Source of the DNA: Escherichia phage phiWec181
Reading direction: 5' to 3' (one strand)
Sequence record: LC739534.1
DNA: 64,000 nucleotides
The position numbers and the translations under genes are program-made. Below the pieces are notes generated by a model. The model was given only the letters and a program-made list of their open reading frames with translations. It did no database searches and was not told the DNA's origin. Of the stretch, positions 3,975-60,341 are shown piece by piece. The first letter of the stretch is position 1. Every line of letters begins with the position of its first letter.

Positions 3975-4343
3975 TTATTCAATGCAAGCATTATTTGCAT
4001 CTTCGATGCGATCTTTCACCCATTGAAGACGTAACGTGTTGGTATGACACGCCAAGTCTATACACTCTGAAAGGTAATCCATGCAATCTGCATTGAACGG
4101 AAGATTGTAGTCCAGTTTTGCACATGTAAATTGTTTCCTCATTTCGTATTTCAAACTATCCAACAAACGATCACGCCATCTTTTATCTTCTTCTCTAATT
4201 ACCTCACCAACAAAATCATCTACATAATCTACCAGACAACCACACAAGCCACTCGTTGTGCGATTCATTGCCGGATGGTTGGCAATCCATGCTTTATAGA
4301 ATCGTATTAATGTTGCACTGCTCAACGGAATGTTACTTTTCAT
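3975..4343 (-). CDS. hypothetical protein (122 aa), member of tandem 3-paralog family
   Basis: ATG at 4343 with AAGGAGG RBS; shares PLSSxxLxxFYxxWxxxxxxxxxxxGLCxCL motif with two neighbours. Confidence 0.6.
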   Translation of the reverse strand: MKSNIPLSSATLIRFYKAWIANHPAMNRTTSGLCGCLVDYVDDFVGEVIREEDKRWRDRLLDSLKYEMRKQFTCAKLDYNLPFNADCMDYLSECIDLACHTNTLRLQWVKDRIEDANNACIE

Positions 4344-4698
4344 TATTGCCTCCTTCACAATCCTGGATACGATCTTCTACCCATTGCACACGCAGTCGGT
4401 TGAGATGACATTTTCTGTTTTCACATTCTTCCTCGTAGTCGAAGAAGTTGGTATTGAAAGGTGTGGTTTTAGACAACCCTGCATACATAAACTGTACCAG
4501 CATTTCATCAGCTAAAGCTTCACGCATCTCCCAAAACTGATCCACATCGGCACCATGTATCGGACACAATACGTCCCATGCAAAATTGCCTAAACATACG
4601 CACAAGCCATTCGCTGTGTTCACCAACTCACTACGGTGAGCCATCCAATTCTTATAGAACATCAGAAGAGTATCACTACTCAAGGGAATATTTTTCAT
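4333..4698 (-). CDS. hypothetical protein (121 aa), member of tandem 3-paralog family
   Basis: ATG at 4698 with AAGGAG RBS; conserved PLSS/GLCVCL motif. Confidence 0.6.
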   Translation of the reverse strand: MKNIPLSSDTLLMFYKNWMAHRSELVNTANGLCVCLGNFAWDVLCPIHGADVDQFWEMREALADEMLVQFMYAGLSKTTPFNTNFFDYEEECENRKCHLNRLRVQWVEDRIQDCEGGNNEK

Positions 4699-4699
4699 A

Positions 4700-5080
4700 T
4701 CAGGCTCCTTTACGATTATGGAAACAATCTTTCACTCGCTCTTGCACCCACTCTACACGAAGCTTGTTTTCATGCGCTCTGTTGTGGTTATGCTCTTGCA
4801 CATAGTCTTCGTAGTTCACATTAAAGGGAACACTGACAGACAATCCTGCACAACGAAATTGTTTCTTCATTTCTTTTAATGTCGCATCACTTAGGGCACA
4901 AAGCTGATTTGCCTGTTCCTCACTGAAGTTACTGTCCCACATCTCATCCCAGATAAAACTATCCAAGCATACACATAACCCATGCCTTGTGCGCTCTTTA
5001 GTATGATGATCAGCAAGCCAACTTTCATAGAAAGCTAACAACACCGGACTACTCAACGGAACATTTTTACTCTCTTGCAT
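4700..5080 (-). CDS. hypothetical protein (126 aa), member of tandem 3-paralog family
   Basis: ATG at 5080 with AGAGGAG RBS (ORF-track start 5167 judged over-extended); conserved motif. Confidence 0.6.
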   Translation of the reverse strand: MQESKNVPLSSPVLLAFYESWLADHHTKERTRHGLCVCLDSFIWDEMWDSNFSEEQANQLCALSDATLKEMKKQFRCAGLSVSVPFNVNYEDYVQEHNHNRAHENKLRVEWVQERVKDCFHNRKGA

Positions 5081-5169
5081 GATAATCTCCTCTCTTGGTT
5101 TCATGACAAACATCCTAATTCTCAACGAGGAACATCTTACGATCAATCCTCGGCAATTACAATTCATTT

Positions 5170-6581
5170 ATCATCGCTTTTCCCTATCAATTATTCTATA
5201 TATACCTGTTATTTTTGACACCCCCTTTGGTCAAATATTAATCGGCAAAATATCTGGGGGTACTCTATAAAATGATGCCCCCTGTTCCTGCAATTTATCG
5301 AGGAGAATATCATTCGACTATCATCGGCAAAGAGACAGAAAAGCCTTTGGTAGCAAGGATTTATGGCGAGTACGTCAGGACTGCTTAACGCGAATTTTTC
5401 GGCCCCTCCACTTCTGCGAGCCGGAATCCTCAAATATCAATGAGAATAATTATCATTATCATTCGTATTCAATAACTTAGGCGATCTTTTCCCCTGCTAT
5501 AAGGTCGGGCCTAACTTAACCATCACTTTTCAAACAATCCTTTATCAATCAACTACTTAACAACCTAAACATATGATTACTACGGTGTAAAGGTGCCGCC
5601 CATAACAGACTACCTATAAAATAGATGAGAATGATTATTATTCAGACAATTCTTACAACAAATCGACCAACAAATCAAGAATTTTCTTATTTTTATTCAC
5701 GTTTAAGAGAACGTGCTCAACATTCCGCTACGCGTAACGGTTCGCCCCCAAAAGATTAGCCTTTGCTTTCCTGTATATTTATACACTATGTGCAAGGTGT
5801 CGCTACACGCTCGCCTTGCCCCGCATAATCCTTCACTGTGCTAATGATTTCATAGTGCAACAATAACACTTATTATTATATTACGCTTAATTATTCTTAC
5901 ATACAATGCTAATAATAAGCCAGCGTAATTAGTGTAAGCGTAATACGCTTGCAATAATTGCAAGCTACATAATCACAAGAAATAACTATCACCGATAGTT
6001 ATGATTGTGGGGGTGTAGTTGGCTTATTATTAGCTCGCTACGTGTCCGGCGTAGCGTGCTAATGATGAGGCTTGGAATGATTCATTTTGCAATTATTACA
6101 GTCTTCACTATTTTGATAATAGTTGTTCTTTTAATGGTTTCATTTGTTATCGTTAGTTAGTTGGTTGTTTTGTAGTGTTATCGTTATCTTGCTTAGTATT
6201 CATCACGGTTTGATTGTTTGTCGTTATCAATCATCTTTCTATTATTCCTTTGATTATGATTAGTTTGCTTATTGTTTTAGGTTGTTGGTTGGTTAGTTGT
6301 TGCGAACTATTATCAACATTATAGTTATGCACTTATATTGCATAGATACGCAAGGGTAGATGATAATGGTTATCATTGCACTGGAAAGGAAGAAAACAGC
6401 CTTTTTCGGTTGTTTGTTGTTGGTTGTTGATCTATTTTAACCGCTCTAAATAGCTCTCTAACAGCCTGTTTACCTGGGGTGTATGGTTATTCGTTTGCTG
6501 GTTGATTAGCTCGATACCGCGATTTATTCAGTTTTGTTCTGTGTCGGTTTTTCATAGGCGGAATCTATCAACATTGTTCGG
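5170..6581. other. 1.4 kb non-coding region rich in palindromes and G/T-skewed short repeats
   Basis: No credible ORF; perfect inverted repeats (ATAACTATCACCGATAGTTAT, TTGCAATAATTGCAA, AGCGTAAT/ATTACGCT) and GTTATCGTTA-type repeats on one strand. Confidence 0.6.
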
Positions 6582-6621
6582 GCAAAAAGAAAGGGCGCTT
6601 GGTGCGCCCCTTGTTTTGTTG
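6582..6621 (-). terminator. intrinsic terminator (GGGCGC-N5-GCGCCC hairpin with U-run)
   Basis: GC hairpin 6593-6609 followed on minus strand by TTTCTTTTT; lies just 3' of gene 6626-7045. Confidence 0.6.
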
Positions 6622-6625
6622 TCGA

Positions 6626-7045
6626 TTATAACGCTTCATAGATTGAGTAGATCCGGTTCGCCAGGTCATTACGAAAGCGGAATTTTTCATCACGTTTAAT
6701 CATCAGATCCTTAAAACCGCATTCTTTCAAGGCTTCATTAACTTTACTGCGGCATACTTTCATATTGTCCTGCGCGTCACCAATAAACTTATTGCTATGA
6801 TGCATTGCTTTGATCTCTTCCTCCAGGACCAGGGCAACTACACGGATCGGATCAAGCTGATACGCGGTAACATCCATGCGGCATTGTAAACGGCTTTTAA
6901 CATCGTTTACCGGATACACTGCAACCTCTTCCCCGTCAACGTTCACGATAACCAGTTTGCCATCAATTTCGAAGCCTTTAGCGGCGCTACCGTGACAAAA
7001 AGCGTTATCGAAGGAGTAAGCCGGATTATTTGATTTAATGTTCAT
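6626..7045 (-). CDS. hypothetical protein (139 aa)
   Basis: ATG at 7045; promoter upstream, terminator downstream. Confidence 0.6.
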   Translation of the reverse strand: MNIKSNNPAYSFDNAFCHGSAAKGFEIDGKLVIVNVDGEEVAVYPVNDVKSRLQCRMDVTAYQLDPIRVVALVLEEEIKAMHHSNKFIGDAQDNMKVCRSKVNEALKECGFKDLMIKRDEKFRFRNDLANRIYSIYEAL

Positions 7046-7087
7046 GTTGTTGTCCTTTGTTTGGTTGCGTTGTTTGCTGCCAGTGAG

Positions 7088-7122
7088 TTAAATATAATAT
7101 AACGCCGATCCCCTGTCAATAG
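7088..7122 (-). promoter_or_regulatory. sigma70-like promoter (TTGACA, ~18 nt spacer, TATATT) inside CCCCTATTGACAGGGG palindrome
   Basis: Hexamers read on minus strand upstream of gene 6626-7045. Confidence 0.45.
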
Positions 7123-32544: not shown

Positions 32545-33054
32545 ATGTTCTTTGACGTAGATTCCTTATTCGTTGCCACTGCTGGACAATCTGCGGTTAA
32601 CGCAGAGTTTGAAGAAAGGGAGGCGTGGATTGATGCTCATAACTATGATCCTACAAACCTAAACTGGTGCTGTATGGATATCAAAGGTATGAGCAGGGAT
32701 AGTGCGTTTAGGGCATACTACGCTGTATATACTCTTGACAATCTTTATCAGTATTTTGTATTCCGTAATATGATTGTCAACCTTAATCTTGCTGGGAGAC
32801 TAAAGAACAAAAAAGAGTTTACTTTAGGGCACTACATACCGTTCAAAAAAGGTGGTGAACATTTTCCTTCCAACTGGACAGTGCAAATAAGAGTTGAAAA
32901 TAACAACGCAGGTGATACAATACCAAAAGTCAAAACAAAATGGTCATGGGAGAAACAGGAACGTTATATACGTTCCCATCTCCCACCAAACCTGAGAGAG
33001 CCGTATGCGAGTCGGGCCTTTCATTTAATGAATATTGTCAAGAGTTTTTACTAA
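32545..33054 (+). CDS. HNH endonuclease-like protein (169 aa)
   Basis: C-terminal H-x5-GGEH-x4-N...N pattern typical of HNH nucleases. Confidence 0.5.
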   Translation: MFFDVDSLFVATAGQSAVNAEFEEREAWIDAHNYDPTNLNWCCMDIKGMSRDSAFRAYYAVYTLDNLYQYFVFRNMIVNLNLAGRLKNKKEFTLGHYIPFKKGGEHFPSNWTVQIRVENNNAGDTIPKVKTKWSWEKQERYIRSHLPPNLREPYASRAFHLMNIVKSFY

Positions 33055-33064
33055 GGAGGATTTA

Positions 33065-34666
33065 GTGTCTAATACTTTGAGTTTCACTCCAACCGAAGAG
33101 CAATTTGCTATTGAGCGTGCTTTCGGGGAAAACCGTTTTGTAACTATTCAAGCAAAATCTGGTTCGGGGAAAACATCTACTCTATACATGTTGGCAAATG
33201 GCACAGACAAGAGCATCCTGTACCTGGCATTCAATAAGAGCATGGCGGAAGAGGCGCGTCGCAAGATGCCGCACAATGTAGAGTGTCGAACTCTGCACTC
33301 AATCTGCTATCAGAAGCTTCCACAAAACTTACGTCACAAACTCTCGCGTCCTGAAGGGAAGTATGTGAATGTGGCGGGAACAGGTAGCGAAATTGCCAAG
33401 AAGTTTAAGATCCAAAACCTTATTGATAAAAACGGAAAGACTTTGGTCACTCGTGCTATGATCGGTTTAATGGTTAAACAAACTTTGGCTAAATATGAGT
33501 TTTCAGATGATGAGCATATCTCTTTGAAACACTTCCCTAAAATGCACATCTCTGATCTGAAACGTAAGAATGTGAATGAGAATAAGCTGATCGCAGAAGT
33601 CGTTAAATATGCAAAACAATTGTGGCGTGAGCGTATTGATCCTAACTCGGAAACGATCATGACTCATGACACCTATGTGAAACTGTTCGAACTATCGGGC
33701 GAAGATTTAGGGTATGATATCATCTTTGGTGATGAGTTCCAGGATGTTAACCCTGCATTCCTGTCTATCCTACGTAACGCAGAAAAGGCCAGTCGTATTG
33801 TGGTTGTAGGCGATGAGTTCCAGAGTATTTATCAGTTCCGAGGTAGTCAGAACATGATGAAAGAGACGGCTCAATATGGTGTAGAATTACCATTGACAGC
33901 ATGTTTCCGTTTTGGTCCTAAAGTGGCAGACATTGCTAATGCGATCCTTAGCGATAAAACTCCACTGGCCCATCCACTGGTAGGGAAAGGGTATAACACG
34001 GTGACAGGTAGCTTCCACTCGGATATAGTGGACTTCTCCAAACCGTACACAATCATCTTCCGTAAAAACCTGACGTTGCTTATGGATGCAATGGATCGTA
34101 TTGCGAACGGAGAAGATATCAATATTAACGTTGACACCAAAGATTTTATTGCTATGGTGGACAGTGTGAATGCGTTGCGTCGAGGAGATATTGACAAAGT
34201 GAAGCATGAAACCGTTCTACCGTATGCAGACTGGCAGGAGTTTGTGGATTGTGCGGAATCAGATCCAGACGCTAAACGTCTACTGAATATTGTTGTTTCA
34301 GGTAAGGCTAACAACATTGCGTACACACTCCGTATGCACCGTAACTCACCTACAGCAAAGGTGACACTGACCACAGCACACAAATCGAAAGGTTTGGAAT
34401 GGGACCAAGTTATTGTTGCAAATGACTTCCCTTCGAACTATGATAAGAAGACACGCGAGTGGGTAGGGCTGGAAGAATCTGAACGTAACCTTCTATATGT
34501 TGCTCACACACGTTGTATTAAATGTTTGCAGTGGAATGAGACAGTGCATGAGATCTTAACCATGCAGCAATTAGGAGGAGACACATCTCCTAAAATGACG
34601 GAAGAAGATGAGATGGTTGCAGCATTGGCTCGTAAGATCAAGCAGATTCGATGCGAGGAGTATTAA
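33065..34666 (+). CDS. SF1 (UvrD/Rep/PcrA-like) DNA helicase
   Basis: GTG start with AAGGAGGA RBS; motifs AKSGSGKT, GDEFQD, VVGDEFQSIYQFRG, TAHKSKGLEWD. Confidence 0.8.
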   Translation: MSNTLSFTPTEEQFAIERAFGENRFVTIQAKSGSGKTSTLYMLANGTDKSILYLAFNKSMAEEARRKMPHNVECRTLHSICYQKLPQNLRHKLSRPEGKYVNVAGTGSEIAKKFKIQNLIDKNGKTLVTRAMIGLMVKQTLAKYEFSDDEHISLKHFPKMHISDLKRKNVNENKLIAEVVKYAKQLWRERIDPNSETIMTHDTYVKLFELSGEDLGYDIIFGDEFQDVNPAFLSILRNAEKASRIVVVGDEFQSIYQFRGSQNMMKETAQYGVELPLTACFRFGPKVADIANAILSDKTPLAHPLVGKGYNTVTGSFHSDIVDFSKPYTIIFRKNLTLLMDAMDRIANGEDININVDTKDFIAMVDSVNALRRGDIDKVKHETVLPYADWQEFVDCAESDPDAKRLLNIVVSGKANNIAYTLRMHRNSPTAKVTLTTAHKSKGLEWDQVIVANDFPSNYDKKTREWVGLEESERNLLYVAHTRCIKCLQWNETVHEILTMQQLGGDTSPKMTEEDEMVAALARKIKQIRCEEY

Positions 34667-54426: not shown

Positions 54427-55071
54427 ATGACCATGAGGTTAGTACAAGGTTGGGGGATTAATGATATAGGTAGTATCCCTAAAACAGGTTTTATCCGAGT
54501 AGCTTACAGGTGTTGGTCAAGAGTTTTAGAAAGATCTCACAGTAAAGCTTGGAAGAATAAGTATCCTACATACAAGGATGTAACATGTTGCGAAGACTGG
54601 AAATATTTTTCAGTATTCATGGACTGGATGGAGACACAACCTTGGGAAGGAAACGATTTGGATAAGGATTTGTTAGGAGATGGTAGCTTATACTCCCCTC
54701 AAACTTGTGTTTTTATACCTCCTGAAATAAATAAAGCTTTAGCTGCAAATAAAAAACAAGGAGAATTCTTATCTGGAGTCTGGTTTCAAACAAAGTCTAA
54801 AACTATGGTTAATAGTTTAAAACGTCCTTGGGCTGTTAAAGCCCATAGACAGGGTAGTAAAAAACCTGTATATTTAGGAAACTATTATTCAGAACAAGAA
54901 GCCCATAATGTGTGGTTGACTACACGCGCAGAGGATATGTTATGGTGGTGCGACCAATGGGAAAACAACGAGAAGTATAATAAATCTTGGAAACCTGTGT
55001 TTAAAGAAGCTTTTAATAAGAAAGCTGAAGCTTATAGAGGGAGGATAAAAAATGTCATACATTGTCACTAA
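54427..55071 (+). CDS. HNH/AP2-type homing endonuclease-like protein (214 aa)
   Basis: W..RC...Y..V..CEDWKxFSxFxxW...YSPxTC then AP2-like Y.SEQEAH..W; paralog of 59542-60138. Confidence 0.6.
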   Translation: MTMRLVQGWGINDIGSIPKTGFIRVAYRCWSRVLERSHSKAWKNKYPTYKDVTCCEDWKYFSVFMDWMETQPWEGNDLDKDLLGDGSLYSPQTCVFIPPEINKALAANKKQGEFLSGVWFQTKSKTMVNSLKRPWAVKAHRQGSKKPVYLGNYYSEQEAHNVWLTTRAEDMLWWCDQWENNEKYNKSWKPVFKEAFNKKAEAYRGRIKNVIHCH

Positions 55072-56833
55072 GTATGGTTTTGATGTAGATTTAAGCAAAG
55101 AGGGGCACACAGGGTGTCCCCGTTGTATGAAGAACGGAAAAGATAGATCGAAGAATAACTTGATGTGTTATGGGTTGGATTCTAACGATGAGCATAAAGG
55201 AGCAAAATGCTTCGCGTGTGAGTACACAATCCCCAGCGTTGAATGGTTACGAGAGAATGGTGAAGTTTTAGAAGAAGAGGAGGATATTGTGGGTTCGGAA
55301 TTTAATAAAGAGATTCATCGTAAGATTGTAGAAGAAACAGGCACTAACCCACGAGGCTACCGTGGGATCAAGGAAGAATATTCTAAATTCTACGGTGTAC
55401 GTTACCAGTACAAACAAGAAGAATCTGGTGTTGTTGTGGAACATACTTTGTATCCAACAACTATCGGTAAAGAACTGGTAGGTTTTAAGCGTCGTATCCA
55501 CCCTAAAGACTTCTCCAAGCCCATTGGTCAAGTAGGTAAAGATGTAGATTTGTTTGGACAAGTTCGTTTCCTTGAGCGTTCCCACACCGTAATCATTACT
55601 GGTGGTGAACATGATGCCTTGGCAGCATATCAAATGTTGGCAGAAGGTCTTGACAGGAAATATGAATTACCAGCAGTAGTTAGTGGCACAACTGGTGAAA
55701 CCAGTATGTACAAACAGGTACAGGCACAGTACCCTTTCTTTGAGAAGTTCAAGAAGATCATCGTCTGCATGGATAATGATAAGGCAGGTAAAGAAGCTTT
55801 TGAGAACATTGTGAAGGTGTTGCCTCGTAATAAAGTTTACCTGATGAAGATGGAACTGAAAGATGCTAATGAATACCTGGTGCAAGATAAAGCAAAAGAT
55901 TTTGTGAAAGCTTATTGGGGTGCAAAACTTTATACCCCAGCGGGTGTTTATGCTTCGAACGAACTTTATGAAGCTGCAATGGACTGTCTGGATGCACAAG
56001 TGATCACCCTCCCTCCGTTCATGCGTACTGCTGCGAACATGTTGGGTGGTGGTCTGGTAGAAGAAGAGATCACAGTTATTCTGGCTAAAACGAGTATCGG
56101 TAAGACGTTGATGGTCAATGAGATCACCAAACACATTATCGTGGCTCATCCAGAACATGTGCTGGGTATTCTGTCTCTGGAGGCAACGTATAAGAAATAC
56201 TCCCGTAACCTTCTTTCTTCGTTCCTGCATATTCCTTTGCATCGTAAGACTAAGGAAGAAAAGGCTGCGATCCTGGAAGAGAACAAGGAAGCTATCAATA
56301 ACTTCTACGTTCGTGAAGATGGTTCTCCTCGCTTCTTTGTTTGTGATGATCGTGGTGCAGACATTGATTCAATCAAGGAGAAAGTGCTGGAGATGATCAT
56401 CTACTTCGGCATTACCATCCTGGTAATTGACCCATACTCGGATCTGTTGTCGGGGATGAGTGTTCAGGAACAAGAAGAGTTGGCAACGTGGTTGAAGCGC
56501 ATCATGAAAGAATACGGCATCACGATCATTGTAATCTCGCACGTTAAGAAAGCTGCCAACAATGGTAACGAACACTTAACAGAAGATGATGCAATGGGTA
56601 GTAGCTTCTTGGCTAAAGGCGCAGGTATTACACTGGCACTGGAACGAGATAAGGCTAACGATGACCCCGTACTTAGAAACACAACTTTTTGTTATATTCT
56701 CAAAAACCGAGAGTTTTCAGAAACTGGTCCGGCTGGGGAGTTTTATTACGATATTAAAACTGCCACGCTACACGACAAAGCACAGTATTTTGCTAACCCT
56801 GATAATGCAGGTGGTGCAGAAGGCGCGTATTGA
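55052..56833 (+). CDS. DNA primase/helicase (593 aa)
   Basis: N-terminal zinc ribbon CPRC...CFAC; TOPRIM (GGEHD, DNDKAG); DnaB-like Walker A AKTSIGKT and Walker B LVIDPYSD. Confidence 0.85.
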   Translation: MSYIVTKYGFDVDLSKEGHTGCPRCMKNGKDRSKNNLMCYGLDSNDEHKGAKCFACEYTIPSVEWLRENGEVLEEEEDIVGSEFNKEIHRKIVEETGTNPRGYRGIKEEYSKFYGVRYQYKQEESGVVVEHTLYPTTIGKELVGFKRRIHPKDFSKPIGQVGKDVDLFGQVRFLERSHTVIITGGEHDALAAYQMLAEGLDRKYELPAVVSGTTGETSMYKQVQAQYPFFEKFKKIIVCMDNDKAGKEAFENIVKVLPRNKVYLMKMELKDANEYLVQDKAKDFVKAYWGAKLYTPAGVYASNELYEAAMDCLDAQVITLPPFMRTAANMLGGGLVEEEITVILAKTSIGKTLMVNEITKHIIVAHPEHVLGILSLEATYKKYSRNLLSSFLHIPLHRKTKEEKAAILEENKEAINNFYVREDGSPRFFVCDDRGADIDSIKEKVLEMIIYFGITILVIDPYSDLLSGMSVQEQEELATWLKRIMKEYGITIIVISHVKKAANNGNEHLTEDDAMGSSFLAKGAGITLALERDKANDDPVLRNTTFCYILKNREFSETGPAGEFYYDIKTATLHDKAQYFANPDNAGGAEGAY

Positions 56834-56838
56834 TTCAG

Positions 56839-56866
56839 AAGGGGCGCAAGCCCCTCTTGACTTTTG
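56839..56866 (+). terminator. candidate terminator/processing hairpin
   Basis: AGGGGC-GCAA-GCCCCT hairpin followed by CTTGACTTTTGATTG. Confidence 0.45.
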
Positions 56867-56916
56867 ATTGAGGAATGTGATACCCTTCAGGTTGAGTTAC
56901 ATAATATGGAGGACTA

Positions 56917-59514
56917 ATGAGTAAGTTTACATGGGATATTGAAGCAACCGCATTACTGAACAATGACACAATTGATTACCTGGCAAGCCCTTATCGATTG
57001 AAAGACACTTTTGGTATGCATTGTATTTGTCTGGAAAACCACGAAACAGGAGAGATCATTGCTTTTCACGATGGTCCTAAGTACATTTTCGATGGTCGTC
57101 CTTATGAAGAGTCTGACGGTAAGTACACTTATGTACTGAAGGAGTATGTGGCACAAGAATACACACACTTTCCTCTGTCAGATTTTCCAGATTTTGTCAA
57201 CCATACAGGCAAGTTCGCAGATAAGCCTGAATACCTCGTAGAAATGGCTGTAGCCCACAACGGCATCAACTATGACCACTTGGCAGTTAAGCTTTACTAC
57301 GGGCTGAATTACAGCGTTAAATACAATACTTGGGGTGATTCGAAAGTTAAGATTATTGATACCCTGATCCTTAGTAAAGTATTGAACCCTGATCGCAAGG
57401 TTGATGGTAAACCTGGGCACAACTTGAATGCTCTTTCTAAAAAAGCTGGCGGTGATGTTAAGATTGATTTCCGTAAAGAGCTTCCAGAAGGAGAACGATT
57501 CAAGACTTTCGCAGCAGATATGTTGTACTACTGTATCTACGACAACAAGGCAACTACAGCAGTATATTATTACCTCATGGAAGAATGGGGCGATTATAAG
57601 AAGTGGCAAGAGCCGTTCGACTTGGAGCAACGTATTGCGGATATCATCACCCGTCAAGAACACCGTGGCTTTAAGTTCAACATGCAACAAGCTGAACAGA
57701 ACCTGGAATTCTTGGACAAAGAAATGGAACGTCTACGTTTGTTGGTAGAGCCTATTCTTCCACCTAAGCCAGCGACTAAAGGTTATCTGAAAGATTTTAT
57801 TCCGCCGAAACTTCAAATCAAGAAGAACGGTGAGCCAACAAACCATATCATCAGGTTTGCGGAGAAACATGGCGGTAGCCTTGAAGAACGTGAAGGTGAT
57901 TGGTGGCTGCTTGTTTTAGATAAAGAGTTTAAGTTACCGATCTCAAGTGAAGAACCTATTTGTGAACCTACCATTCCGTCTACGCTGAATGATACGACAC
58001 ACATTAAAAACTGGCTTGTAGGTTTAGGTTGGGTTCCGTCTGAATATAAAGACAAGGATTTGACGCTTAAATCTGGTTCGAAGATCAAGAAAGATCCTGA
58101 CGACTTAGAGAAAGGTATTCTGTCTTATGTCAAACAGACCTTGGAAAGCAATTTCTGTAATGACCGTTGCGAACACTTACAAGCCGATGCTGAAACACTG
58201 GAGCTTAGAATCCGTGAACGTCTGGCTAAAGGGAAAGGTCGTGGTCTTAAAGTGCTGACCAACCCATGCTTCACGAAGGGGCAGGAGAAAGAGATTTGTC
58301 CTAATCTTGAAGCACTGGGCGAGAAGTTCCCGTATGCCACACAGATTGTGCAGTACCTGACGTACAAACATCGTCGAAACTCTATTTTGGGCGGTGGTGC
58401 AGATTGGGAAGACGATGAGGAAGATCAAGAATACGACAAAGGTTTCTTGGCAGCAGTTCGTGCCGATGGTCGTATAGCGACTCCAGCGGCTACATGTGAC
58501 GCTGCAACATCTCGTATGAAGCATCGCTCTGTTGCTAACGTTCCTCGCGTTACATCGTTGTTTGGGTACGAAATGCGTAACTTGTTTGGGGTAGAAACAC
58601 CGCGTTACTTCCAGATCGGTTATGACTTTGACTCCTTGGAAGCAAAGATTGAGTCGCATTATTGTTGGCGCTACGAACCGGAGCCTCATGAATACTGTAA
58701 CGCTCTCTTGTTGGAGAAGCCTAACGATGTTCATACCATGATGGCAAGACGTATCACAGAAACTATTGGACGTAAGTTTGAACGTAGTCCAGCTAAATCT
58801 GTTAAATACGGGATTACATATGGAGCACAGGCAGACAAAGTTGCTAAGACAATTGGTAGTGATAAGTACACAGGACAACTGGTATTTGATGCGTTCTGGG
58901 AAGCAGCTTTCCCGTTAGCACAACTGAAAGAGAAGTTGAATGCTTTCTGGGTTAACACTGGCAAGCAGTATGTTCTCGGTATTGATGGACGTAAAGTTCC
59001 AACACGATCTGCACATGCAATCTTAAACTCCTTGTTCCAAAGTGGCGGGGTTATCTGTGCCAAGCGTGCAATGGTAATCTATGACGATATGATTGAAGAG
59101 GAAGGTTTAGCTGTTGACTTCTTCGTAGATGACTGGAAGAATAAAGAGTTCGTTCAGCAAATGATTGCTTACCACGATGAAGCGCAGCTTGAAGTATCTC
59201 GTAACTTGGTGGAATTTAAATGGTTCTCCAAAGAGTCTTTAGGTTGGGTTAAAGTGGATGACGAGAAAGAGCAGAAGAAAATAGATGCGGAATGTCTTGC
59301 AAAAGCTAATGAATGGAAGCATAATAAAGAGAAAGAGACAGGGCAGATTTGGGCTAACGTTCACGAATCACCTAAAGGTGGTTGGTTTACCGCTTATAGT
59401 CGTGCCGGAGAACTTGCTTCTCTTGCTGTTATCAAAGCTGGGGAATATTACAAACTAAACGTTCAGCTTACCGCTGGATACGATGTTGGTAGTTCCTGGG
59501 CCAGTTGTCATTGA
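56917..59514 (+). CDS. family A DNA polymerase with 3'-5' exonuclease domain (865 aa)
   Basis: Exo motifs DIEATAL, NGINYDH, YYCIYD; polymerase motif A GYDFDSLE, motif B KSVKYGITYG, motif C YHDE. Confidence 0.9.
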   Translation: MSKFTWDIEATALLNNDTIDYLASPYRLKDTFGMHCICLENHETGEIIAFHDGPKYIFDGRPYEESDGKYTYVLKEYVAQEYTHFPLSDFPDFVNHTGKFADKPEYLVEMAVAHNGINYDHLAVKLYYGLNYSVKYNTWGDSKVKIIDTLILSKVLNPDRKVDGKPGHNLNALSKKAGGDVKIDFRKELPEGERFKTFAADMLYYCIYDNKATTAVYYYLMEEWGDYKKWQEPFDLEQRIADIITRQEHRGFKFNMQQAEQNLEFLDKEMERLRLLVEPILPPKPATKGYLKDFIPPKLQIKKNGEPTNHIIRFAEKHGGSLEEREGDWWLLVLDKEFKLPISSEEPICEPTIPSTLNDTTHIKNWLVGLGWVPSEYKDKDLTLKSGSKIKKDPDDLEKGILSYVKQTLESNFCNDRCEHLQADAETLELRIRERLAKGKGRGLKVLTNPCFTKGQEKEICPNLEALGEKFPYATQIVQYLTYKHRRNSILGGGADWEDDEEDQEYDKGFLAAVRADGRIATPAATCDAATSRMKHRSVANVPRVTSLFGYEMRNLFGVETPRYFQIGYDFDSLEAKIESHYCWRYEPEPHEYCNALLLEKPNDVHTMMARRITETIGRKFERSPAKSVKYGITYGAQADKVAKTIGSDKYTGQLVFDAFWEAAFPLAQLKEKLNAFWVNTGKQYVLGIDGRKVPTRSAHAILNSLFQSGGVICAKRAMVIYDDMIEEEGLAVDFFVDDWKNKEFVQQMIAYHDEAQLEVSRNLVEFKWFSKESLGWVKVDDEKEQKKIDAECLAKANEWKHNKEKETGQIWANVHESPKGGWFTAYSRAGELASLAVIKAGEYYKLNVQLTAGYDVGSSWASCH

Positions 59515-59541
59515 CATTTACTTGATTTTAAAGGAGTTTTT

Positions 59542-60138
59542 ATGCTTACTGTATATGGTGAAGGTATTAATGATCTGGAGGGTGAGAGCACTCTACCTGG
59601 TAGTAAGAAACTGACTCCTCATTATATGAAATGGATGGCTATGTTGGGGAGGTGTTACTCCCCTTGCCAACAAGAACGTGATCCTTGTTATCATGGGGTG
59701 CTGGTCTGTGAAGAATGGAAGCTGTTTTCCAACTTCTATGCTTGGTTAAAAACTTGGGAAGAGTGGGAGAAATTAGAATTAGACAAGGATATTATTGGAG
59801 GGGGAGTTTACTCCCCTAACACCTGCCTTTTAGTAACAGGAGATCTTAACAAGTTCTTAGCTTATAGAGTGAGTAAAAGATCTCATGGAACTATGGTAGG
59901 TTTACATTACGAAAAAGATCGTAAGAAGTATAAAGCCAATATTAAAACAGGCTCACGCATGGTAACACTTGGACGTTTTGATACTGAACTTGAGGCGCAT
60001 CTTTGTTGGTTGAAAGCTAAAGCAGAACAACTTACAAAGTTTTTTGAAACAGAAGACAAAAGAGTTGTTCCACATCTTAAAGCATTGTATAATGATATGC
60101 TTGAACATATTGAACAACGTAAGGAGTGGACACGATAG
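59542..60138 (+). CDS. HNH/AP2-type homing endonuclease-like protein (198 aa)
   Basis: Paralog of 54427-55071; AP2-like GRFDTELEAHLCW. Confidence 0.6.
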   Translation: MLTVYGEGINDLEGESTLPGSKKLTPHYMKWMAMLGRCYSPCQQERDPCYHGVLVCEEWKLFSNFYAWLKTWEEWEKLELDKDIIGGGVYSPNTCLLVTGDLNKFLAYRVSKRSHGTMVGLHYEKDRKKYKANIKTGSRMVTLGRFDTELEAHLCWLKAKAEQLTKFFETEDKRVVPHLKALYNDMLEHIEQRKEWTR

Positions 60139-60341
60139 GAGGGTATATGCGTTACGATTTAGATTACTTTGGTATGCCTTACCTACCCGATGAGTTCGCA
60201 GATGAGGCGGAAGATCGTGAGTGGGATGATGGGGATATCCGTTGTTGGTCTTGTGGTAAAGACATGTCTTACGAACAACACATGCACAACGATGGCTTCT
60301 GTCCGCACTGTCAGAATGAAATAGATTTAGAGGAGGACTAA
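60126..60341 (+). CDS. small zinc-ribbon protein (71 aa)
   Basis: CWSCGK...CPHCQNE. Confidence 0.5.
   Translation: MDTIGGYMRYDLDYFGMPYLPDEFADEAEDREWDDGDIRCWSCGKDMSYEQHMHNDGFCPHCQNEIDLEED

Follow-up and report, generated by a model that had tools for sequence, protein, structure and literature searches.

Two putative free-standing IPA-HNH homing endonuclease genes beside the replisome genes of Escherichia phage phiWec181

Are the two related genes that bracket the primase-helicase and DNA polymerase genes of Escherichia phage phiWec181 (record LC739534.1) homing endonuclease genes (HEGs), or do they serve some other function? The question matters since HEGs shape phage mosaicism and can act as weapons between co-infecting phages. 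It is addressed here for a 64,000-nucleotide (nt) stretch of the genome (the whole of the DNA that was analysed, hereafter the window), for which a preliminary description, made from the letters of the DNA, had listed two paralogous open reading frames (ORFs) as HNH/AP2-type homing endonuclease genes. We consider it probable that both genes (HEG-A and HEG-B) are free-standing homing endonuclease genes of the IPA-HNH type, which would combine a divergent, His-less beta-beta-alpha-metal nuclease domain with a DNA-binding AP2 domain. The genes of the locus are as follows (aa, amino acids).

54427–55071, + strand: HEG-A, candidate IPA-HNH free-standing homing endonuclease gene (ORF; phrog_953, E 1.2e-51)
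55052–56833, + strand: primase-helicase gene, T7 gp4-like, presumed target gene of HEG-A (Toprim_2 4e-10, DnaB_C 3e-15, phrog_239 5e-162)
56917–59514, + strand: family A DNA polymerase gene (polA), intein-less allele (Pfam DNA_pol_A, phrog_17)
59542–60138, + strand: HEG-B gene, 198 aa (phrog_953, E 1.3e-69)

Two paralogues and their family

The two ORFs are indeed paralogues, as their products align by BLASTP with 33% identity over 175 aa and an E-value of 3e-28 (i.e. well beyond chance), and a family profile search of the 64-kb window recovered them as the only copies. Their placement is likewise as first described: the gene order reads 92-aa gene, HEG-A, primase-helicase, DNA polymerase, HEG-B and small genes, with the last 20 nt of HEG-A overlapping the primase-helicase start and HEG-B starting 27 nt 3' of the polA stop. 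Their GC content (36.6% in HEG-A and 39.0% in HEG-B) is lower than the 42% of the window, in line with mobility. The HEG-A product would comprise 214 aa when read from the ATG at 54427 and 212 aa when read from that at 54433; the second is most likely the true start, because its spacing to the Shine-Dalgarno (SD) sequence is better, the alignment with HEG-B begins there, and a 99%-identical database protein (P0188) has 212 aa. A search for introns and non-coding RNAs around both genes found none (a single sub-threshold transfer-messenger RNA match was taken as chance), and a scan for promoters and terminators saw no enrichment.

Both products are divided into an N-terminal nuclease-like domain and a C-terminal AP2-like one, with the following limits.

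54427–54756, + strand: HEG-A N-terminal nuclease-like domain, with D79-K80-D81 (54661–54669), Y89-S90-P91 (54691–54699) and N102 (54730–54732)
54769–54942, + strand: HEG-A AP2-like DNA-binding domain, approximate limits, aligned with the AP2 region of HEG-B and of the family
59542–59871, + strand: HEG-B N-terminal nuclease-like domain (aa 1–110), with D81-K82-D83 (59782–59790), Y90-S91-P92 (59809–59817) and N103 (59848–59850)
59890–60036, + strand: HEG-B AP2 DNA-binding domain (aa ~117–165), three strands and one helix

The AP2-like motif, which had been proposed from the translations, holds up in several ways: the C-terminal half of an AlphaFold2 model of HEG-B (pLDDT, the predicted local distance difference test score, 92; built from a 35-sequence alignment) has an AP2 fold, the family profile matches WRI1 AP2 domains with E 9.9e-6, and Pfam AP2 is matched by 10 of 35 family members (best E 2.2e-7). 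The Cys/Trp-rich character ascribed to the N-terminal region is equally borne out, with W31, W59, W68 and C95 (HEG-B numbering) invariant. Together with R37, Y50, F65, D81, K82, D83, Y90 and N103, these residues are 100% conserved in 170 family sequences that are otherwise ~40% identical, and both ORFs are intact and keep every one of them.

The IPA-HNH HEGs were defined from gp59, gp115-116 and gp209 of vibriophage ICP1 (Barth, Dunham & Seed 2023, NAR Genom Bioinform, PMC10448857), and are built from an N-terminal domain that lies beyond the reach of Pfam HNH_3 and is recognised as HNH by HHsearch, followed by a C-terminal AP2 domain (PMC10448857). Their genes cluster beside those for DNA polymerase (which 29% of them adjoin), ribonucleotide reductase and terminase, and are enriched in Barbaviruses and Flaumdraviruses (PMC10448857). 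Our comparison with a founding member was made with gp59: BLASTP aligned HEG-B with it at E 8e-21 (40% identity over the N-terminal domain), and hhalign of the family profile gave a probability of 99.9 and E 3e-32 over 182 columns that cover both domains. ICP1 gp59 is likewise without a Pfam match, and the ICP1 gene order (primase/helicase, DNA polymerase, gp59) places it at the position of HEG-B. Homology to gp59, the missing Pfam HNH_3 match, a C-terminal AP2 domain and a free-standing location beside essential genes are thus all found in HEG-A and HEG-B, which are new members of an already described class. By tblastn the family was retrieved from 700 phage records with 1135 copies in total, several of them in many of the genomes; the carriers include Barbaviruses and Flaumdraviruses (115 Rheinheimera (Barba-type) and KIL-type Pseudomonas phages), and an exhaustive search extended it to 8301 clusters at 50% identity. 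Within it HEG-A stands as an orphan lineage, its nearest non-self relative being 43% identical.

Insertion junctions and mosaic boundaries

If the two genes were mobile, we would expect them to come and go between close relatives. The 7.5-kb region around both genes is 100% identical to the corresponding DNA of Escherichia phages phiWec179 and phiWec186, and ~95% identical to that of phiWec188, phiWec190 (Stephanstirmvirinae, Phapecoctavirus) and PsgM04F. The presence/absence comparison among relatives, which had been set beforehand as a check, found both genes missing from the latter three. The features of the two insertions are these.

54429–55051, + strand: HEG-A insertion, DNA missing in HEG-less relatives (junction alignments with phiWec190 and PsgM04F)
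55052–55171, + strand: recoded or co-converted tract, primase-helicase codons 1–40, start of the zinc-finger region with a CPRC pair; predicted location of the HEG-A target in HEG-less alleles
59515–60138, + strand: HEG-B cassette, 27-nt leader with its own SD (AAAGGAG) plus the gene (junction alignments)

The HEG-A junctions are precise and intergenic. Downstream of the 92-aa gene, the HEG-less phiWec190 and PsgM04F have CAGGAGAGGAT-TGTG..., which provides the SD and the GTG start of the primase-helicase gene, whereas in the window a 623-nt insertion stands directly after ...GAGAGGAT; the old primase-helicase SD (CAGGAGAGGAT) now serves HEG-A, and a new one (GAGGGAGGATAAAAAATG) is supplied by the HEG-A 3' end. 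The left junction shows no flanking divergence. On the right, the primase-helicase gene opens with a 120-nt tract that has 36 mismatches to PsgM04F, followed by 515 nt with 0 (Fisher p 9e-22). A comparison of codons 1–50 with phiWec190 counts 19 synonymous and 8 non-synonymous codon changes. The tract region is unusually well conserved in HEG-less phages, which are ~22% diverged overall and differ here at 9 of 130 nt, against 32–36 for the window.

A tblastn search of 50,697 phage records for carriers of HEG-A recovered only phiWec179 and phiWec186. Exact-sequence look-ups from either start codon returned no match; the 99% variant P0188 led to genomic contexts. A HEG-A with 99% identity occupies this position in four metagenomic contigs. 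Their insert matches the window at 99.4% and their tract at 100%, against no more than 91% for the 1-kb flank on the left of the insert. Such a pattern is expected of a homing cassette that enters diverse backbones and brings along a form of its target that resists cleavage, and the recoded tract and cassette pattern lead us to place the likely HEG-A target in nt 1–120 of the HEG-less primase-helicase gene. On one HEG-A-bearing contig (L012, Logan DRR827095_221, gene from 6485) the polA product is listed with 1189 aa as against 865 aa in the window; the contig is collinear with the window up to 58811, which suggests a further insertion (another intein?) beyond this point.

At the other end of the module, HEG-less relatives have a GC-rich terminator hairpin (GGGGCTTCGGCCCC plus a T run) after the polA stop, and then a 64-aa gene with its SD. 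The window has the 27-nt leader and the HEG-B ORF in place of the hairpin, and the TAG stop of HEG-B overlaps the SD of the gene behind it. We note that, with the hairpin removed, polA, HEG-B and the downstream genes may be co-transcribed, and that the downstream ORF listed from a GTG at 60126 (60126–60341, 71 aa, zinc-ribbon-like CxxC...CxxC) almost certainly starts at the ATG at 60147 (64 aa), as it does in relatives. An orthologue of HEG-B (at least 64% identity) is carried by ~38 phage records and is patchy among Stephanstirmvirinae. Moreover, the cassette boundaries are identical in Phapecoctavirus (EF1-1) and Justusliebigvirus (PD06, alia and the metagenomic locus L007), though the downstream gene differs. 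HEG-B shares 83–91% nt identity with the Justusliebigvirus copies, as compared to 59–85% per 150-nt interval for polA (~73% on average); this greater similarity across genera points to exchange after the backbones had split.

The presence/absence polymorphism and the mosaic boundaries, which coincide with the genes, thus support the original proposal of homing endonuclease-type genes beside essential replisome genes; DNA cleavage itself, the identity of the target sites and the catalytic roles of single residues are inferred.

The N-terminal domain and the explanations weighed

The label 'HNH' of the preliminary description survives in part. It is apt for the divergent IPA-HNH type, and fails for canonical HNH nucleases, since the catalytic His is absent and no HNH model matches. 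In the HEG-B model a beta-beta-alpha element is formed by aa 79–81, 96–98 and 100–110, in which D81-K82-D83 closes a strand, Y90-S91-P92 lies in the next loop and N103 in the helix after the second strand. The predicted layout is that of a beta-beta-alpha-metal finger in which a Lys takes the usual position of the catalytic His. This Lys, found where strand 1 ends and a D-H motif would be expected, is invariant in 170 of 170 family sequences. D81 and N103, both invariant and spaced by 22 residues, would be the metal ligands, a role assigned to them by position only. Judged from the model, the closest solved fold appears to be that of PacI, an HNH-superfamily enzyme that lacks the catalytic His, has a Tyr in an omega-loop and holds its metal by one Asp and one Asn (PMC5714182, PMC4081073). 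The invariant Asp/Lys/Asp, Tyr and Asn at the positions of a beta-beta-alpha-metal site in 170 sequences point to catalysis, and we tentatively suggest that a metal ion is held by D81 and N103 with the omega-loop Tyr90 and/or Lys82 acting as general base or nucleophile, an assignment made by analogy and somewhat doubtful.

Several results weigh against a nuclease that homes. Whole-chain fold searches of the model returned the AP2 domain only, and so did a PDB search with the full-length family profile, while the same search with the N-terminal domain gave chance matches only (deoxycytidine kinase and ferritin, E>0.05). Pfam and NCBIfam HNH models (at E<=1 for Pfam HNH) matched none of 35 family members (HEG-A, HEG-B and 33 homologues), the N-terminal ~110 residues of which were without a match to any Pfam or NCBIfam model, and Pfam HNH_3 (PF13392) left HEG-A and HEG-B unmatched even at E<=1. 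Because these scans matched no nuclease family, the PHROG label 'HNH endonuclease' (phrog_953) is not independent evidence. The hhalign comparison of the N-domain profile with the HNH_3 and HNH proteins gp80 and gp28 of ICP1 gave a probability of 0.3% (a weak test, each template being a single sequence); the two Cys4 zinc sites of each PacI subunit have no counterpart in the HEG N-domain; and the literature searched contained no report of cleavage activity for any IPA-HNH protein. As to mobility, a donor of the recoded HEG-A tract was sought in the 50,697 phage records, where the best match to the surrounding 161-nt stretch was 77.5% (i.e. the donor is unsampled). The flanks of HEG-B show no clear recoded tract, which makes its case for mobility somewhat weaker than that of HEG-A, and its orthologues could derive in part from vertical descent and repeated loss. 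A search with the N-domain profile collected 3579 proteins, with the same architecture among the matches listed and no bridge to canonical HNH families.

An alternative that accommodates the missing His would be that the genes encode sequence-specific DNA-binding regulators, in which an AP2 domain and a dead HNH-like domain repress neighbouring replication genes, or those of a competitor or the host. AP2 is the DNA-binding module of transcription factors and of the phage CasPR (CapR+AP2) anti-CRISPR repressors (bioRxiv 10.64898/2026.02.23.707548), DNA binding without catalysis is known from His-less His-Me fingers, SMAD MH1 among them (PMC5714182), no nuclease model is matched by sequence, and HEG-A has taken the SD of the primase-helicase gene and extends across the start codon of the latter, which couples the translation of the two. 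We nevertheless regard this alternative as unlikely, for it leaves unexplained the patchy presence and absence at ~95% identity, the sharp recoded tract and the cassettes that are more conserved than their flanks. Invariance of the Asp/Lys/Asp, Tyr and Asn residues is not in its favour either, PacI is an example of an active His-less site, and a PADLOC search gave one weak match and no credible defence family.

That both genes are decayed or domesticated former HEGs, inherited vertically with repeated loss and no longer mobile, seems to us very unlikely. Such a history is compatible with the shared site and boundaries of the HEG-B orthologues in two genera (an ancient insertion followed by losses) and with HEG-B flanks that lack a strong co-conversion tract. 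It is at odds with the HEG-less relatives, in which neither site bears a deletion scar (hairpin and spacer are intact where HEG-B would be, and so are SD and start at the place of HEG-A), with a HEG-B that is more similar between genera than the adjacent essential polA, with a HEG-A cassette that is 99.4–100% identical beside a flank that is 9% diverged, and with the retention of both reading frames and all invariant residues. Finally, small intergenic accessory genes are common in phage genomes and the left HEG-A junction is undisturbed, yet it is highly improbable that ordinary 'moron' genes arrived here through illegitimate recombination, with similarity and placement coincidental and no nuclease role of their own, given a very large family that clusters near DNA polymerase, ribonucleotide reductase and terminase genes (PMC10448857), the same post-polymerase position in ICP1, an unrelated vibriophage, a nuclease-like fold whose putative catalytic residues are invariant, and a one-sided recoded tract in an essential gene.

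Returning to free-standing homing endonucleases as the preferred explanation, we propose the following course of events. On co-infection with a related HEG-less phage, the AP2 domain and the C-terminal helices would bind a site within or next to the adjoining essential gene. The site of HEG-A would fall in the opening ~120 nt of the primase-helicase gene; that of HEG-B would lie either at the 3' end of polA or inside the GC-rich terminator hairpin whose place the cassette takes. The N-terminal domain would next cut or nick the DNA. Recombinational repair from the HEG-bearing genome would then copy the cassette, along with adjacent donor sequence, into the recipient. The carrier itself would be protected by the recoding of its own site in the case of HEG-A, and by the loss of that site in the case of HEG-B. 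Catalysis would involve one metal ion on D81 and N103 (in HEG-B), with the His base replaced by K82 and/or Tyr90 as in PacI.

The locus is otherwise a clean but ordinary example of an expected feature of a large lytic phage genome. Its value lies in the natural experiment that it offers: near-isogenic phages with and without each gene (phiWec179/186 versus phiWec188/190) are held in culture collections, and the likely HEG-A target is narrowed to 120 nt at the start of the primase zinc finger, so that both a cleavage assay and a homing cross could be planned straight away. Residues to mutate are suggested by the structural parallel with PacI. If PacI-like, His-less chemistry were true, a very large phage family that Pfam and NCBIfam miss would amount to a new catalytic class of homing endonucleases, and two versions of the primase-helicase 5' end, one recoded over 120 nt and one not, would be a ready substrate pair for its first biochemical test.

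The wider neighbourhood and known systems

A third gene that had been named alongside the pair, as an HNH-like gene preceding a helicase, is of another kind.

32545–33054, + strand: conserved HNH-like core gene, orthologue of phi92 gp200 (phrog_3500, which has no function label in PHROG)

It does abut a UvrD-like helicase gene (33035–34666), and its product has an invariant signature (G95-H96...P99-F100...G103-G104.H106-F107-P108.N110-W111..Q114....N119) typical of HNH fingers, which Pfam and NCBIfam leave undetected (Pfam HNH_5 reaches only E 0.25). The phi92 orthologue gp200 is annotated 'HNH endonuclease-like fold' and lies two genes upstream of a UvrD-like helicase gene, in the same neighbourhood. 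The orthologues occur in exactly one copy in each of 423 phage records (Stephanstirmvirinae, Ounavirinae (Felixounavirus), Erwinia phages and others), and their identity falls with taxonomy (100%, 74%, 47% and 36%). Because it is single-copy in all of these records and its identity tracks taxonomy, we regard it as a conserved core gene, not a sporadic HEG; as a mobile element to be grouped with HEG-A and HEG-B it was rejected, the sporadic distribution that mobility implies being absent.

Relatives of the window carry further elements within the same replisome module. PsgM04F (OR584014.1) has at 4215–5108 a HEG with T5orf172 and DUF723 (CapR-like zinc finger) domains between the primase-helicase gene and polA, where the window has a gap (56834–56916), and the divergence of the window from PsgM04F is raised from ~56612 to 56941, around the site of this gene. 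The polA products of EF1-1 and PD06 contain a 245-aa in-frame insert that Pfam does not detect; it begins with a Cys, ends in ...ITITGN followed by a Cys, and has a LAGLIDADG-like motif (LEGFLIADG). This intein lies at 6364–7098 (approximate coordinates) of the EF1-1 locus (L003) and spans ~735 nt of the PD06 locus (L005), at about 4390–5120. Its site is empty in the window (58662/58663, codon 582/583, ESHY|CWRY). With a T5orf172 HEG and a polA intein present in relatives, the replisome module is therefore a hot spot. Two further observations concern the same region. A patch of ~120 nt at the 3' end of the primase-helicase gene (56612–56731) has up to 14 mismatches per 60 nt against both phiWec190 and PsgM04F, and the ~390 nt that follow are identical to phiWec190, which makes another mosaic boundary. 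PsgM04F, deposited as a Pseudomonas coronafaciens phage, is ~96% identical to phiWec179/190 here and has 100% protein identity for the 32545–33054 gene, and its host assignment may deserve a second look.

When set beside known systems, HEG-A and HEG-B resemble the free-standing HEGs of T4-type phages (SegG, MobE) in their intergenic location beside essential genes, and differ from them in that the latter have a GIY-YIG or canonical HNH nuclease and other DNA-binding modules. For SegG, co-conversion of flanking markers from a cleavage site distant from the insertion point is on record (cited in PMC10448857). With PacI (PDB 3m7k/3ldy; His-Me finger group 20), the sole active His-less precedent and one that uses a Tyr, the parallel is between the invariant Y90, D81 and N103 and its Tyr, Asp and Asn, by position only; PacI is a homodimeric 8-bp cutter without AP2, and its sequence similarity to the HEG N-domain is undetectable.

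The canonical HNH-AP2 homing endonucleases (Magnani et al. 2004; His-Me finger group 2, I-HmuI, HNH_3) have the plan that is predicted for HEG-A and HEG-B, an N-terminal beta-beta-alpha-metal-type domain followed by AP2. They differ in having D-H-x-D where HEG-A and HEG-B have D-K-D, i.e. a general-base His in place of the Lys. The 22-residue spacing of D81 and N103 in HEG-B equals that from N87 of ICP1 gp80 (the residue before the catalytic His) to its metal-binding Asn, and it recurs between Asp74 and Asn96 of I-HmuI. In I-HmuI the finger is preceded by NUMOD4-type strands, unlike the helical, Trp-rich scaffold of the HEG N-domain.

The nearest system is that of vibriophage ICP1. HEG-A and HEG-B come from another host and lineage (a Stephanstirmvirinae coliphage), and have ~200 aa without the N-terminal extension of ~60 aa that is found in gp59 (272 aa). 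They share with gp59 direct homology, a divergent HNH-like N-terminal domain followed by AP2 and the LDKD...Y.P..C...N motif, and with the IPA-HNH genes of ICP1 a free-standing location near replisome genes, at boundaries of genetic exchange.

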